Shown here piece by piece: positions 48,777-53,915 of a DNA stretch of 64,000 nucleotides. Made by a program: the position numbers and the translations under genes. Numbering within the stretch: position 1 is the stretch's first letter; every line of letters begins with the position of its first letter. The stretch is from an uncultured Faecalibacterium sp. (GTDB lineage: Bacteria > Bacillota > Clostridia > Christensenellales > Aristaeellaceae). The notes under the pieces were generated by a model. It was not told the origin of the DNA, searched no databases, and saw nothing but the letters and a program-made list of their open reading frames with translations. Location of the stretch: assembly GCA_964464815.1 (NCBI GenBank), contig CAYXHF010000004.1, positions 2,483-66,482 on the forward strand, in the 5' to 3' direction.

Positions 48777-49925
48777 TTATGTTTCTGTTTCGTCCTTTTC
48801 CACCGGGCGATTGTTCTTTTTGCGTGCCGCCAGGGCATCAATCTGGCAGAAAATATCCGCCATATGTGTATCACGATTCAGGAACGGGCCGATGCGCTTG
48901 CGAATCATCTGCGCCTCCGCTTCGTTGCCGCCCTGCAAGCGTTGCACCGCATAGAAGGCCGCGGCGGCCATGGGCGTGACGAACATATTCAGACGCGCCG
49001 ACTTGCCCTCCTTGCTCTGATAGAAACGGGTGCATTCACCCGGCTGGTCACACAGCAATTCGCACAGCGTTCCCACGTGCAGGAGCATCTCCCAATTGCT
49101 TTCCGACAGATGCGCATTGCTGTCCACCACACGATGTGCCAGCACCACCGCCGTTGCGTAGTCCTTCTGCTGCATCGCCTGAATCGCGTAATTCAGCGCG
49201 GCCGTTGCGTCAAAGGGCGTCTTCACCACGTCCGGGCAGGGGAAGCAATCACCCAGCGCCGTTTCCGTCAACGGCTTGGCCAGCATTTGCTGATCCAGCA
49301 GGAGCAGATGTCCCCAGTAAATACGGCGCTCCTGCTCCTGACGTGCCAGCGCCCATGCCGTCACGACAGACGCACGCGTATAGCGTCGTCCCAGCGGCAG
49401 GAGCTGATACAGCAGCAAAATCATGCCGCCCAGCGCCAATTCGCACAGCACCATCGACACCGGCTCGCCGATTTTCAGCACGGTCAGCACGGCAAACACC
49501 ACCATCCACACCAGTGCAAACAGCGTGTCACCCAGCACCACCAATGACGCGTGCCACGACTTCATTTCTTCATACGCACTCGGAACCAGCGTCACCGAGC
49601 CCATGAAGCGTGTCCGGCGGCAACCGCGCACCGTTTCCAGCTTGCCATTTTCATCCCGTCGGATGGTATGCATCAGCGCTTCATAGGACTGCACCTTCCA
49701 ACCACAGCACAAGCCCGCCAGCAGCTGTCCCACGTCTGCCATCGGCACAAGCAGCAGCGCCGTGAAGAGCATGCCCACATACATCAGCGCATCTGCAAGC
49801 AGGATATCCTCCTCCGGCAGGTAGTATGACAGCATCGACAGCACCACCGAGCAAGTCACCATCGTGACAACCAGGCACACCAGGCGCACATTCGGCAACC
49901 ACCGCTGAAATAACTTTTTCTTCAT
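48777..49925 (-). CDS. membrane protein, catalytically degenerate paralog of the upstream M50-like protease
   Basis: Aligns by eye with 49922-51097, but HEVGH is replaced by ADVGQ (LLVPMADVGQLLAG) and NNDG is lost. Its ATG overlaps the upstream stop (ATGA). Confidence 0.7.
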   Translation of the reverse strand: MKKKLFQRWLPNVRLVCLVVTMVTCSVVLSMLSYYLPEEDILLADALMYVGMLFTALLLVPMADVGQLLAGLCCGWKVQSYEALMHTIRRDENGKLETVRGCRRTRFMGSVTLVPSAYEEMKSWHASLVVLGDTLFALVWMVVFAVLTVLKIGEPVSMVLCELALGGMILLLYQLLPLGRRYTRASVVTAWALARQEQERRIYWGHLLLLDQQMLAKPLTETALGDCFPCPDVVKTPFDATAALNYAIQAMQQKDYATAVVLAHRVVDSNAHLSESNWEMLLHVGTLCELLCDQPGECTRFYQSKEGKSARLNMFVTPMAAAAFYAVQRLQGGNEAEAQMIRKRIGPFLNRDTHMADIFCQIDALAARKKNNRPVEKDETET

Positions 49926-51097
49926 CCGTTTGTTTCCTTTTCCATTATATTTTCTTCCTCCTGCGCATGGCATGCCTGCCATTTTTCCAGGACGCTTTGC
50001 ATCAGCAGCATTTCCGGCAGGATGGACACTTGCTGCCCCTTCGTCTGTACGATGATTTTCTCGGCCATCTGGCGCGACCTTTCCGCCTTCTGCAAATCAT
50101 GATCGTGCAGCAGATGCACGCCATAGGCCACCACCGGCATCAACGGTATGCGCATCAGGCCCTGCACGCTCTGCTGATATTCAGGCATGACATAGTAACG
50201 AAGGCATTCGCCCTTTTCATCCGTCAGCAATTCGCACAGTGCACCCATGGCTACCATCATCTGCTTGCGCAGCACCATCATGGGCGGCTTATTGTCCAGT
50301 ATCGCATGGCATTCCTGCTTGACGCGTTCATATTCCTGCATTTCCAGCAGGCGGCAGAGACGAAGGAAGTCGATTTCGCCTTCCAATGTATTCTGCGGCA
50401 GCTCTTCGTTGACGAACCATTCCTCCGGCAAATCCTGCAAGCGCTTGCCTTGCAGATTCTCCGCATTGATGCGCAGCTGCTTCCACGCGGCATAGCGGGT
50501 CTGCTTCCGCTGACGGAGCAGGAGCAGGTTCACGCCATCGTTATTGATTATCTGGGACAGCGGCAGCAGATTGTTCAGCACGGACAGCAGCAAGCCAAGG
50601 AAAGCCGCCCACCACATCGTGCCTGCCATCGTTCCATAGCGCGGCAAGGCCACCAGCAGCGTTCCAAGCGCCAGCACAGCCGTGATCAGGATACCGCCCG
50701 CGTTATACCACCCATACGGCAAGCGGCCGTCCTGCGGCCATTCTGGCGGCACCATGACGCACTGTCCCATCGCGCCCGGCAGATGCCATGTGCCGATTTT
50801 CCACTTGTTATTCTCCGTGCGAGTCAGCTGCCACCCAAACGCCGCAAAGCTCTGCAAGCGGTATCCCGTCAGCAAGCCGCAAATCAGATGACCCACTTCG
50901 TGTATCGGTACAATCAGGATATTCACCGCGAGAATCAGCAGCAACGCCAGCCAATATGTCGCAAAGGAGTCCATGGCGAATATCCACGGCAGGAGGCTAA
51001 CGCCGATACCCACGCCGAGCAGCAAACTTGCGCCCATGCCCTTTCTGTTTGAGGACTTTTTTGTTTTCGTCTGTGCATCTGGGGCTTGCTTTTTCAT
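49922..51097 (-). CDS. M50/site-2-protease-like membrane metalloprotease with a helical-repeat C-terminal domain
   Basis: HExxH lies within a TM segment (LIVPIHEVGHLICG), with a downstream NNLLPLSQIINNDG (NxxPxxxxDG-like). AGGAG lies 6 nt before the ATG at 51097. Confidence 0.7.
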   Translation of the reverse strand: MKKQAPDAQTKTKKSSNRKGMGASLLLGVGIGVSLLPWIFAMDSFATYWLALLLILAVNILIVPIHEVGHLICGLLTGYRLQSFAAFGWQLTRTENNKWKIGTWHLPGAMGQCVMVPPEWPQDGRLPYGWYNAGGILITAVLALGTLLVALPRYGTMAGTMWWAAFLGLLLSVLNNLLPLSQIINNDGVNLLLLRQRKQTRYAAWKQLRINAENLQGKRLQDLPEEWFVNEELPQNTLEGEIDFLRLCRLLEMQEYERVKQECHAILDNKPPMMVLRKQMMVAMGALCELLTDEKGECLRYYVMPEYQQSVQGLMRIPLMPVVAYGVHLLHDHDLQKAERSRQMAEKIIVQTKGQQVSILPEMLLMQSVLEKWQACHAQEEENIMEKETNG

Positions 51098-51173
51098 ATC
51101 GTTTCTCCTATTCCCGGGGAATGTCTGCGTTTGCCACCGCTTCGTTCCTTTTTCCTCACAAAAGCCATAGGAT

Positions 51174-51202
51174 AGTATACCGCTTTTCCCTTTTTTCGTC
51201 AA
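51174..51202 (-). promoter_or_regulatory. candidate sigma-A promoter of the M50-like gene pair
   Basis: On the minus strand: TTGACG (51202-51197), 17-nt spacer, TATACT (51179-51174). Confidence 0.5.
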
Positions 51203-51252
51203 CCGGTGGGGAAGGGACAACAAAATCTCATGAAAAAAAGTCATTTTACCTA

Positions 51253-51281
51253 TTGACAAGGTAGGTTTTGCGTGGTATACT
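51253..51281 (+). promoter_or_regulatory. near-consensus sigma-A promoter of the metY-cysK leader
   Basis: TTGACA (51253-51258), 17-nt spacer, TATACT (51276-51281), with TG at 51273-51274 as an extended -10. The 9-bp inverted repeat GGTAGGTTT (51260-51268) / AAACCTACC (51282-51290) brackets the -10. Confidence 0.7.
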
Positions 51282-51328
51282 AAACCTACCCAAACGATAG
51301 GGAATGTATTTCGGAAGGAGGCGTTCAC

Positions 51329-51457
51329 ATGAAGGCTCGTAGCATCGCCATGATGATGATGTGCATGTGTGCTTGCCGCATGTGCATGCTTTTGCATACC
51401 TTCCTGTCCGATATGCGCTCCACCGTAGGGGAAAGGCACATCTCCGCATCACCGTAA
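51329..51457 (+). CDS. candidate regulatory leader peptide, 42 codons, Met/Cys-rich
   Basis: GGAAGGAGG (51313-51321) lies 7 nt before the ATG. Translation: MKARSIAMMMMCMCACRMCMLLHTFLSDMRSTVGERHISASP. Residues 8-20 contain 7 Met and 4 Cys. It is below the ORF-track size cutoff. Confidence 0.6.
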   Translation: MKARSIAMMMMCMCACRMCMLLHTFLSDMRSTVGERHISASP

Positions 51458-51479
51458 TTGCGGAGCAACGCGTGTTCAC

Positions 51480-51518
51480 CACCGGGAGACTTCATCGGAG
51501 TCTCCCGGTGTATTTTTT
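51480..51518 (+). terminator. intrinsic terminator (attenuator) between the leader ORF and metY
   Basis: 12-bp GC-rich stem CACCGGGAGACT / AGTCTCCCGGTG with a 7-nt loop, followed by TATTTTTT. It lies 22 nt after the leader stop and 143 nt before the metY ATG. Confidence 0.8.
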
Positions 51519-51661
51519 AGGAATAGGCAGGTGATTGTCCCTATGAAGGCTTACTTTGAAAAGCTTGTTCGGGCCAATTTCCGTTTCGGGCGAATGTGTC
51601 GTGCTTGCTCTTGTTTCTGCATTCACAACGACAACACACGCAACGAAAGGAAATGATACAT

Positions 51662-52945
51662 ATGTCTCACTATCATTTTGAAACCCTGCAACTCCATGTC
51701 GGCCAGGAACACCCCGACCCTGCAACGGATGCCCGTGCTGTGCCGATTTATCAGACGACCTCCTATGTCTTCCACAATTCTGCCCATGCGGCGGCACGCT
51801 TTGGCCTGTCCGATGCCGGAAACATCTACGGCCGCCTGACCAATTCGACACAGGATGTGCTGGAAAAGCGCGTGGCGGCGCTGGAAGGCGGCGTGGCCGC
51901 TTTGGCACTCGCATCGGGTGCGGCGGCTATTGCCTACACACTGGAGGCGCTGGGACAAAACGGCGGTCACTTTGTTGCCCAGAAGACCATTTACGGTGGC
52001 AGCTACAACCTGTTGGCACACACCCTGCCCAACTTTGGCATCACGGCCACCTTTGTCAATATTCACGATTTAGCCGAGGTCGAGGCTGCCATTCAGGACA
52101 ACACGCGCGGCATTTACATTGAGACACTTGGCAACCCGAACAGCGACATTCCGGACATTGACGCTTTGGCGGCACTGGCGCACCGTCACGGTCTGCCCCT
52201 TGTGGTCGATAACACCTTTGGCACGCCGTACCTGATTCGCCCCATTGAACACGGCGCGGACATCGTGGTGCATTCCGCCACCAAGTTCTTAGGCGGACAC
52301 GGAACAACACTCGGTGGCATCATTGTCGATTCCGGCAACTTCGACTGGACAGTCAGTGGCCACTATCCCGCGATTGCCGACGCCAACCCCAGCTATCACG
52401 GCGTATCCTTTGTCAAGGCGGCAGGCCCGGCGGCCTTTGTCACCTACATCCGCGCCATTTTGCTGCGCGATACAGGCGCGACGATTTCTCCCTTTGCCGC
52501 ATTTTTGCTCTTGCAGGGCATCGAAACGCTTTCCCTGCGTCTGGATCGCCATGTGGAAAATACAAAAAAGGTGATTGACTTCCTTGTCAACCACCCGCAG
52601 GTCGAACACGTCAATCATCCATCCCTGGCGAATCATCCCGACCATGCACTATACCAGCGGTATTTTCCGCATGGTGGCGGATCAATCTTCACCTTTGAAA
52701 TCAAAGGCGGTGTGAAAGAGGCGCACCAGTTCATCGACCATCTGGAAATCTTCTCATTGCTGGCCAACGTCGCCGACGTCAAGAGCCTGGTGATTCACCC
52801 GGCCACGACAACGCACAGTCAGCTTTCCGAGGATGAATTAGCCGATCAGGGCATTCGCCCCAACACCATTCGCCTGTCCATCGGCACGGAGCATATTGAC
52901 GATATTCTCGCCGATTTGCAAAAGGGCTTTGATGCTGTGCAATAA
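51662..52945 (+). CDS. metY: O-acetylhomoserine sulfhydrylase (Cys/Met-metabolism PLP enzyme)
   Basis: [12 protein letters not shown]..., [11 protein letters not shown], and PLP-lysine motif [11 protein letters not shown]. Confidence 0.85.
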
Positions 52946-52970
52946 TCGCAACCACAAGGAGGAAATGGCC

Positions 52971-53915
52971 ATGTCCCGCATTTTCACATCCGCCGACCAA
53001 CTGATCGGCCACACACCCTTGCTGGAGCTTACCCATATTGAGCAGGATTTCGGCCTGAAGGCCAGAATTCTGGCAAAGCTTGAAGGCTTCAATCCTGCCG
53101 GTTCGGTCAAGGACCGCATTGCAAAAGCCATGATTGACGATGCCGAGCAGCGTGGCTTGTTAACGCCCGATTCTGTCATCATTGAGCCTACCTCCGGTAA
53201 CACCGGCATCGGGCTTGCCGCCGTAGCCACAGCGCGTGGATACCGCACCATCATCGTTATGCCCGAAACCATGTCCGTGGAACGGCGTCAGCTGATGCAG
53301 GCATACGGCGCAGAGCTTGTCTTAACCGAAGGTGCAAAGGGGATGAAGGGCGCCATCGCTGCCGCCGAAGCACTTGCCGCGCAAACGCCACACAGCTTTC
53401 TGCCCGGTCAATTCGTCAATCCCGCCAACCCGAAGGCCCATCGGGAAACGACCGGCCCGGAAATTGACGCTGACACCGATGGGCATGTAGACATTTTTGT
53501 CGCGGGTGTCGGCACAGGTGGCACCATCACCGGTGTGGGAGAATATCTCAAAGCCAAGCATCCCCACATTCGCATCGTTGCTGTTGAGCCAGCTTCCTCC
53601 GCCGTGCTTTCCACGGGCGTAGCAGGGGCACACAAAATCCAGGGCATTGGCGCCGGCTTTGTGCCGGATGTCCTCAACACCAGCATCTATGACGAAATCA
53701 TTGCCGTCTCTAATGAGGATGCCTTTGCAACCGGACGGCGCATCGGCCAAAGAGAAGGTGTGCTTGTCGGCATTTCCTCCGGTGCCGCCACATGGGCCGC
53801 CATTACACTAGCCCAGCGCCCCGAAAATGAAGGCAAAACCATTGTTGTCCTCCTGCCAGATACCGGCGACCGCTATCTGTCTACACCACTCTTTTCTTCA
53901 ATCAATCACCCGTAA
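52971..53915 (+). CDS. cysK: cysteine synthase A (O-acetylserine sulfhydrylase)
   Basis: [11 protein letters not shown] (PLP lysine), [27 protein letters not shown] lies 7 nt before the ATG at 52971. Confidence 0.9.

Follow-up and report, generated by a model that had tools for sequence, protein, structure and literature searches.

What senses the supply of methionine (Met) and cysteine (Cys) at a clostridial metY-cysK locus whose leader is matched neither by the S-box/S-adenosylmethionine (SAM) riboswitch covariance models nor by that of the T-box? The Met and Cys genes of Firmicutes are the textbook case of control by a riboswitch (the S-box) and by T-boxes. For clostridial sulfur genes, too, these two kinds of RNA control are described as the norm (PMC2566862, PMC2940859). 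The locus lies in a 64,000-nucleotide (nt) stretch of contig CAYXHF010000004.1 from an uncultured Faecalibacterium sp., hereafter called the window. As judged from comparison across related genomes and from RNA folding, the 370-nt leader of metY-cysK probably contains two ribosome-read sensors in series: a short open reading frame (ORF), sORF1, that would serve as a transcription attenuator, and a second one, sORF2, that would act at the level of translation. At the Rfam gathering score, no family was found in the window, nor any riboswitch or T-box in 20 related loci, and permissive filters over 51100-51760 (E < 10) returned only a microRNA match to the terminator hairpin, at a meaningless E = 0.35. 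The first-pass annotation, a reading of the letters alone that had proposed a Met/Cys attenuator here, had likewise seen no riboswitch and had named a riboswitch match in such a scan as one finding that would speak against it. The parts of the first sensor and the genes behind it, all on the + strand, are as follows.

51253-51281, +: promoter of the sigma-70 type (TTGACA 51253-51258, 17-nt spacer, TATACT 51276-51281, TG at 51273-74)
51313-51321, +: Shine-Dalgarno sequence (SD) of sORF1, GGAAGGAGG, 7 nt 5' of the ATG at 51329
51329-51457, +: sORF1, a 42-codon leader peptide ORF with its TAA stop at 51455-51457
51350-51388, +: regulatory codon run MMMMCMCACRMCM, 7 Met and 4 Cys, from the ORF translation
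51407-51421, +: region 2, the antiterminator 5' strand (UCCGAU ... CUCC), inside sORF1, from the duplex and its covariation
51442-51465, +: hairpin CUCCGCA/UGCGGAG with the sORF1 stop (51455-51457) in its loop, nested inside the antiterminator
51480-51518, +: intrinsic terminator, stem 51480-51510 and T-run 51513-51518
51485-51499, +: antiterminator 3' strand, which is the terminator 5' arm plus loop and pairs with 51407-51421
51662-52945, +: metY, O-acetylhomoserine/O-acetylserine sulfhydrylase (NCBIfam TIGR01326, 609 bits against a cut-off of 495)
52968-53915, +: cysK, cysteine synthase A (NCBIfam TIGR01139, 450 bits against a cut-off of 351)

Most of this layout had been described at first pass, and it held up on inspection. 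The promoter coordinates are correct; the scan gives 11 of 12 consensus positions with the extended TG, and the predicted transcript start lies near 51288. The strong SD and the 42-codon ORF with 7 Met and 4 Cys in residues 8-20, its stop, two CCGCA copies (51376-80 and 51444-48), TGCGG (51459-63) and CACCGTAGGGGA (51421-32) are all in the places given for them, and the two downstream genes assigned as sulfhydrylase and cysteine synthase both exceed the curated family cut-offs. The terminator hairpin and its U-run are also present, with a stem of 14 pairs in the scan, nine of them G-C, instead of the 12 that had been counted by eye; the isolated hairpin is predicted at about -26 kcal/mol.

The translation of sORF1 is MKARSIAMMMMCMCACRMCMLLHTFLSDMRSTVGERHISASP. 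Because Met and Cys make up only 3.5% and 1.1% of codons in the 28 long ORFs of the window, a background of 4.6%, 11 Met/Cys in 13 residues far exceed expectation. When all 64 kb were scanned in six frames, the best 12-residue stretch of sORF1 held 10 Met/Cys; the next-best short ORF held 6 per 12, and the runners-up overlap long ORFs. Within the run, 51360-51388 folds as a hairpin followed by UUUU (scan), and this hairpin is retained by RNAalifold across the 11 sequences of class A defined below. We speculate that hairpin and UUUU might form an RNA polymerase pause site that synchronizes ribosome and polymerase.

Relatives were collected by scanning a genome collection with MetY, which gave 80 loci at 77-91% identity, mostly from clostridial metagenome-assembled genomes labelled Oscillospiraceae, Acutalibacteraceae or Lachnospiraceae, with a few from Negativicutes, Spirochaetes and Fibrobacterota. 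The alignment of metY upstream regions that had been suggested at first pass recovers a Met/Cys-rich sORF plus terminator upstream of metY in 10 other genomes, one of them a Hallerella (Fibrobacterota). Together with the window these form class A (the window, L001, L002, L003, L005, L006, L016, L017, L045, L055 and L056). Its common design is an SD, of the GGAG type in 10 of the 11 aligned members, a sORF of ~40 codons with a Met/Cys run built from AUGUGCAUG repeats, a conserved UUUCCGAUAUGUUCUCC segment, a hairpin at the stop codon and a terminator, CCGGGAGACUUUAUCGGAGUCnCCGG. The element always stands directly upstream of metY, except in L175, where a class A-like attenuator and a copy of sORF2 precede metQ. 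Extra copies of the leader elements were sought elsewhere in the window and in the locus flanks, and only chance matches inside genes were found. In L017 the sORF, located ~150-390 nt upstream of metY, continues through the terminator hairpin to a length of 72 codons.

Region 2 and the 5' portion of the terminator can form a duplex that excludes the terminator. UCCGAU (51407-12) pairs with AUCGGA (51494-99) and CUCC (51418-21) with GGAG (51485-88), and this native two-part duplex is predicted at -14 to -17.6 kcal/mol in all 11 sequences. Pairs were counted on a composite alignment (A3) that the analyst had anchored on motifs. On it, 96.7% of antiterminator cells are paired and 6 of 11 pairs are changed on both sides; for the terminator the values are 92.2% and 6 of 13. 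None of 500 shuffles scored as high in either case, and slid registers were 31-64% paired for the antiterminator and 31-53% for the terminator, which RNAalifold also keeps across the 11 sequences. In three members both terminator arms change along with region 2, by compensatory changes: UUCGAU/AUCGAA and UCUUC/GAAGA in L045, CUUCC/GGAAG in L055, and UCCGAC/GUCGGA and CUUUC/GAAAG in L056. When the RNA is cut before the terminator 3' arm, 8 of 11 sequences have a minimum-free-energy (MFE) structure in which region 2 is paired with the 5' arm.

A hairpin separates the two antiterminator strands in 11/11 members, even though its stems are unrelated (CUCCGCA/UGCGGAG, CAUUG/CAAUG, AAUCACUG/CAGUGAUU and others). 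The sORF stop lies inside this nested hairpin in seven sequences and immediately 5' of it in three, L017 having none, and the Met/Cys run of the window ends 19 nt before region 2, an arrangement compatible with a switch set by the position of the ribosome. Among the competing pairings proposed at first pass, that of CCGCA 51444-48 with TGCGG 51459-63 is this conserved stop-codon hairpin. The pairing of CCGCA 51376-80 with TGCGG did not recur in the relatives, and neither did that of CACCGTAGGGGA with the terminator 3' arm, in place of which 51407-51421/51485-51499 covaries. A three-state model in which region 2 also acts as an anti-SD for the SD of sORF1 itself was considered; complementarity is seen in some sequences (z 0.1 to -3.2), and the model is kept as a possibility only.

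Several observations bear on whether sORF1 is read by ribosomes. An SD-ATG was picked at each locus blind to frame and then compared with the conserved motif; the two were in frame at 8/10 class A loci, as well as at 13/15 loci of class B and 25/26 sORF2 loci, both described below. The start-to-motif distances vary between loci, mostly by multiples of three. In L006 and L002 region 2 is read in another frame (FPIYSP vs ISDMFS) while the Met/Cys run is still in frame; since the shift occurs only downstream of the run, conservation concerns the RNA in region 2 and the codons in the run. Even in the diverged sequence of L055, Met codons persist at alternate positions in frame (MDMPMLMPMCSAM). A public assembly annotates a 56-residue ORF opposite sORF1 (51325-51495 of the window, - strand; 1164-1334 of L201); it is conserved in no relative and is probably spurious as a gene. 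Taken together, the frame, the two frame-shifted loci, L055 and the minus-strand ORF favour, short of proof, an element read by ribosomes over a ligand-binding RNA. With 10 relatives, retained frames and compensatory changes behind it, the proposal of a leader-peptide attenuator with Met/Cys regulatory codons is considerably strengthened, and ribosome-mediated reading of Met and Cys in this leader appears likely.

A second design, class B, was found ~40-330 nt upstream of metY in 15 loci, mainly Lachnospiraceae plus Anaerovibrio (L020, L030, L035, L036, L038, L041, L047, L048, L062, L063, L066, L069, L072, L074 and L075). Its core reads AUG UGU UGU CGA AUG, then 5 nt, then CUCCCGGGCA. In 14/14 aligned sequences the latter and the terminator 5' arm, UGCCCGGGAG, are perfect complements, and the ATG-5 nt-CUCCC spacing is invariant in the same number; AUGGC/GCCAU and GGAGCG/CGCCUC form further helices. 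The CGA-ATG pair is present in all but one of the 15 attenuators. A ribosome stalled at CGA-AUG would end ~1 nt short of the antiterminator strand.

The third element, sORF2, occurs in 33 of the 81 metY upstream regions, either alone or 3' of a class A element. It had been overlooked at first pass. In the window its parts are as follows.

51526-51534, +: SD-like AGGCAGGTG of sORF2, read from the sequence
51543-51656, +: sORF2, MKAYFEKLVRANFRFGRMCRACSCFCIHNDNTRNERK, between the terminator and metY, with the conserved peptide FEKLVRANFRFGRM
51576-51588, +: AAUUUCCGUUUCG, the N-F-R-F-G codons, candidate anti-SD complementary to 51644-51654
51591-51596, +: codon pair CGA-AUG (Arg-Met), the last conserved sORF2 codons and proposed stall site, from codon conservation
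51644-51654, +: SD region of metY, CGAAAGGAAAU, whose end is overlapped by the sORF2 stop TGA (51654-51656)

The conserved sORF2 peptide spans ~17-18 residues with the core F-E-K-L-V-R-A-N-F-R-F-G-R-M (FEKLVRANFRFGR is a stretch of it). Codons were counted at the 33 loci, which had been found via MetY and not via the motif codons. Each of the conserved Leu, Val, Arg and Gly positions is encoded by 4-5 different synonymous codons: Leu is CTT 12, CTG 10, CTC 8, TTG 1 and TTA 1 times; one Arg is AGA 17, CGG 6, CGT 3, CGC 2 and CGA 1 times; another is CGT 14, CGA 8, CGC 7, AGA 3 and AGG 1 times; and Gly is GGA 19, GGG 8, GGC 3 and GGT 2 times. Because conserved residues turn over synonymous codons, including AGA and CGN for Arg, ~14 residues are under selection at the peptide level. 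The last Arg, by contrast with these positions, is encoded by CGA in 31 of 33 loci, and the ATG after it is invariant; CGA accounts for 2.8% of Arg codons in the genes of the window and 1.5% in the adjacent metY genes. The residue after the Met is free (stop, C, Y, R, S, F, H, Q, N, T, L or P), and many family members stop directly after it. Nearly all members have their G-R-M codons 45 nt from the start codon. Conservation of CGAAUG as a strand of an RNA helix, with CAUUC downstream as its partner, is plausible in some sORF2 loci; class B has no apparent partner in the correct place, and codon-level selection on CGA-AUG is therefore preferred.

The sORF2 family belongs to methionine genes. 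Scanning metagenomes with AAYTTYCGNTTYGGNCGAATG gave at least 120 matches, and among the matches listed the downstream gene is metY in at least 83, a metQ-family lipoprotein gene in at least 18, metN in at least 7 and a ThiF-like gene in at least 1, with at least 6 preceding an unclear gene and at least 5 on pieces too short to tell. Since copies precede metY, metQ or metN, some of them between metI and metQ, sORF2 is a methionine-regulon element. In L106, L111, L119, L122, L151 and similar cases it is found inside an operon for a methionine ABC transporter, after the end of the permease gene and before metQ; it seems that sORF2 can be used as an internal control point as well as in a 5' leader. 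The copy in L108 precedes a ThiF/TcdA-like adenylyltransferase gene, which is not a recognized methionine gene. A scan of viral contigs with the sORF2 DNA pattern gave 0 matches, and a protein search with a 41-residue, GTG-start version of sORF2 gave no candidates in a database from which such small ORFs are evidently absent.

The N-F-R-F-G codons of sORF2 are complementary to the metY SD, and the centroid fold of the window pairs 51576-51588 with 51644-51654. The anti-SD duplex beats shuffles at z < -2.5 in 16 of the 24 genome loci whose spacers are shorter than 100 nt, and at z < -2 in 21 of 41 unique metagenome cases among the matches listed. A compensating change is seen in L009 (UUACC with GGUGA), and the metQ loci pair in a different register, AAACGGAGAAUU. 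The spacers between sORF2 and metY are C/A-rich and G-poor. The window's own sORF2 is unusually long, has four extra Cys codons and ends 5 nt before the metY ATG.

These elements suggest the following course of events. Transcription would start near 51288, and ribosomes would load at GGAAGGAGG and translate sORF1. Should charged tRNA-Met or tRNA-Cys be scarce, the ribosome would stall within 51350-51388 and leave region 2 free to pair with 51485-51499 as it emerges, the nested hairpin bringing the strands together; the antiterminator would then block the terminator hairpin, and RNA polymerase would read through. With ample Met and Cys, the ribosome would pass region 2 and the 5' half of the nested hairpin to the stop at 51455, so that the antiterminator would be absent or unzipped, the terminator would fold and transcription would end at 51513-51518. 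On read-through transcripts the sORF2 sensor would come into play. A ribosome with CGA in its P site and AUG in its A site, awaiting Met-tRNA, would cover exactly the 15 nt of the N-F-R-F-G codons, and with these covered the metY SD would be unpaired and the ribosome-binding site of metY freed. In most bacteria CGA is read by inosine-adenosine wobble. The rare CGA and the nascent peptide may slow the decoding of the next AUG, by which a single codon could report the supply of Met-tRNA.

A number of observations weigh against this picture. All of the antiterminator and terminator covariation comes from three divergent sequences (L045, L055 and L056), counted on the motif-anchored composite alignment. 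Folding with the stalled-ribosome footprint masked, which had been suggested at first pass, gives the terminator as the full-length equilibrium structure whatever the ribosome mask, and no clean switch appears. In truncated transcripts the antiterminator forms without any ribosome, and in 3 of the 10 sequences that have an in-frame stop it persists with a ribosome at that stop. Because full-length equilibrium favours the terminator, any switch must be kinetic, as in other attenuators, and the logic given for it here is a proposal. L017 has no in-frame stop codon before its terminator; this could be an assembly error, or the element could be decaying or a variant. The AUGUGCAUG repeat is self-complementary, and some of the Cys codons may be by-products of the hairpin and not sensors. 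At sORF2, the anti-SD pairing is weak in several loci (L001, L003 and L005), the covariation between the third base of the Asn codon and the SD flank is marginal (Fisher p = 0.02, uncorrected for relatedness), and translational coupling between sORF2 and metY in the window could blur any effect of sORF2. An inverted repeat at the promoter, described below, suggests some regulation at transcription initiation. The whole case is built on comparison and folding.

Three other explanations have to be set against the two-sensor reading. The switch may be real but set by an input other than the ribosome, such as an undescribed SAM, Met or Cys riboswitch, an RNA-binding protein, or uncharged tRNA on the AUG-rich hairpin, with the ORF incidental. 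The AUGUGCAUG...AUGUGCAUG hairpin and region 2 are indeed conserved at the nucleotide level, region 2 as RNA and not as peptide, and the ribosome-masked equilibrium folds reproduce no switch. A sensory RNA of this kind would nevertheless have to lie outside everything in Rfam, including the S-box, the other SAM classes and the T-box, and to work from a simple series of hairpins with no multi-helix junction. It would also leave aside the strong SD and ATG conserved at the right spacing, a frame that survives insertions and deletions, in-frame Met codons in so diverged a sequence as L055, and a stop codon that holds its place in the nested hairpin; we consider it distinctly improbable. Still further from likely, to the point of near-dismissal, is the idea that sORF1 encodes a functional Met/Cys-rich peptide, metal-binding or modified, with the hairpin as its terminator and metY driven separately. 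Met/Cys-rich motifs do bind soft metals, and the SD of sORF1 is strong. Yet the relatives do not share the peptide 3' of the run, a part that L006 and L002 read in a different frame, the consensus scan shows no plus-strand promoter-like site between the terminator and metY, the antiterminator covaries with the terminator, the element always lies directly upstream of metY (or of metQ in L175), and neither Pfam nor NCBIfam has a match.

For the second sensor, the main alternative to a hungry-codon model is direct sensing of a metabolite by the nascent chain: sORF2 would be an arrest peptide of the TnaC/SpeFL type, in which nascent FEKLVRANFRFGRM binds Met, SAM or a pathway intermediate in the exit tunnel, causing or relieving arrest. 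The peptide-level selection on ~14 residues, the nearly constant 45 nt from the start to G-R-M and the many members that stop directly after Met, with the next residue otherwise free, all fit such a peptide, and the C/A-rich, G-poor spacers to metY recall the sites of Rho loading that follow tnaC. A stall on the anti-SD would turn the gene on, however, which suits starvation and not abundance of the end product, and the stop after Met is not conserved. The invariant AUG and rare CGA point instead to decoding kinetics, and no likeness to arrest peptides was found in PDB, Pfam or NCBIfam. We regard metabolite sensing by sORF2 as unlikely, if less so than either of the two explanations above, and retain two ribosome-read sensors in series as the favoured reading of the leader.

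Two further features lie at the promoter.

51248-51266, no strand assigned: inverted repeat ACCTA-N9-TAGGT over the -35 box, read from the sequence; candidate operator
51284-51302, +: ACCTACCCAAACGATAGGG, located where the transcript is predicted to start; the class A alignment shows it conserved as CCAACCTAAnnGGTAGGT

The inverted repeat, which like sORF2 had escaped the first-pass annotation, is found again in all three leader classes, and its ACCTA/TAGGT pentamers are ~12-fold enriched upstream of 45 related leaders. Besides the window, the boxes are present at L003, L019, L020, L030, L035, L041, L049, L062, L065, L066, L075 and L076. This recurrence suggests that the repeat is a candidate operator and that a transcription factor adds a further layer of control. 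ACCTACCCAAACGATAGGG, which holds a second pair of these pentamers, may be either a 5'-terminal stem-loop or a second operator. The divergent upstream neighbour (gene 49922-51100, - strand) has its own minus-strand promoter-like site at 51202-51174 (TTGACG-17-TATACT), so that the 230-nt intergenic region is predicted to carry two back-to-back promoters. A consensus scan for plus-strand promoter-like sites between the terminator and metY found none.

The comparisons suggest that many abundant anaerobes of gut and rumen may read their methionine status through the ribosome, in at least three related designs, and that these bacteria probably sense methionine supply via stalled ribosomes rather than riboswitches. 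A more tentative proposal, which we consider possible but would not yet call probable, is that sORF2 represents an amino-acid sensor of a new kind, distributed among Clostridia, Negativicutes, Spirochaetes and Fibrobacterota of the gut and rumen, in which a single AUG is hypersensitized by a conserved tunnel peptide (FxxLxRxNFRFGR) and a P-site CGA that replace runs of regulatory codons, or else in which the peptide senses Met or SAM as TnaC senses Trp; with classes A and B it would make up a ribosome-read regulon (metY, cysK, metN, metQ) in place of the S-box and T-box. The element bears on how a single "hungry" codon can yield a switch-like response, by way of a rare codon directly before the sensor codon. 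For annotation, it matters that public gene callers overlook both sORFs and place a spurious opposite-strand ORF over sORF1.

How, finally, does this leader compare with known systems? No leader peptide found here has a match in Pfam, NCBIfam or PDB, and searches of Rfam 15, NCBIfam and the literature turned up no Met leader; the literature search returned no paper with the motif FRFGRM and none on a Met leader or arrest peptide, an absence that does not prove novelty. Known cases of attenuation by a leader peptide concern Trp, His, Phe, Leu, Thr and Ile/Val, to which mycobacteria add Cys. Actinobacterial Cys leader peptides were predicted in 2005 (PMC1262725), and a 2010 survey described regular leader peptides as then just emerging in Firmicutes (PMC2965389). 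With the classical attenuators (trpL, hisL, pheL, leuL and thrL of Proteobacteria; trp and ilv/leu of Actinobacteria; his and leu of some Bacilli, Lactococcus and Staphylococcus) the leader shares a short ORF with a cluster of regulated codons, an intrinsic terminator with a mutually exclusive antiterminator, and a position directly 5' of biosynthetic genes. In the window these appear as an ORF with its own SD, a Met/Cys cluster, a terminator and an antiterminator that overlaps the translated region. The differences are the use of Met and Cys codons, the clostridial lineage, regulatory codons that themselves form a hairpin, and a stop codon placed in a hairpin nested in the antiterminator, whereas in the classical leaders it lies between segments 1 and 2.

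In mycobacteria, leaderless polycysteine sORFs (the 'Cys ribulon') unmask a ribosome-binding site, and in Ms5788A a ribosome stalled at Cys codons keeps the downstream ribosome-binding site out of the RNA duplex that would sequester it (bioRxiv 10.1101/834739). Stalling at Cys codons switches on cysteine-related genes there, and the unmasking in Ms5788A resembles what is proposed here for sORF2. Those sORFs are leaderless, have consecutive Cys codons and show no terminator, whereas the present ones have strong SDs, Met is the universal codon, sORF1 is paired with an intrinsic terminator, and sORF2 combines a conserved peptide with a rare codon. sORF1 has neither a leaderless start, being preceded by ~40 nt of leader with an SD, nor two or more consecutive Cys codons, none of its Cys codons being adjacent. 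In ermCL/cat translational attenuation, too, a ribosome stalled on a short leader ORF opens a hairpin that hides the SD of the next gene, with a role for the sequence of the nascent peptide; there an antibiotic in the exit tunnel triggers the stall, whereas here methionine genes follow and the trigger is proposed to be the supply of Met-tRNA.

In plants, the MTO1 region of CGS1, a methionine-pathway gene, arrests in response to SAM. This region, TnaC (PMC8429421) and SpeFL resemble sORF2 in that a leader ORF encodes a conserved nascent peptide, ~15-35 residues long, by which a metabolic operon is governed. They share no sequence similarity with it, and the logic expected here is induction on starvation and not by a metabolite. 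The sORF2 peptide is under selection, as in a nascent-peptide arrest leader, and has no sequence relative among the solved arrest complexes in PDB. We know of no counterpart in TnaC, SpeFL or CGS1 to its conserved rare CGA codon. The S-box (SAM-I) and the Met/Cys T-boxes of Firmicutes, with which our question began, are alike in genomic position, in the genes they precede (metY, metQ, metN and cysK) and in their terminator/antiterminator output; what differs is the sensor, which in them is an aptamer or a tRNA-binding stem and in the metY-cysK leader would be an ORF.

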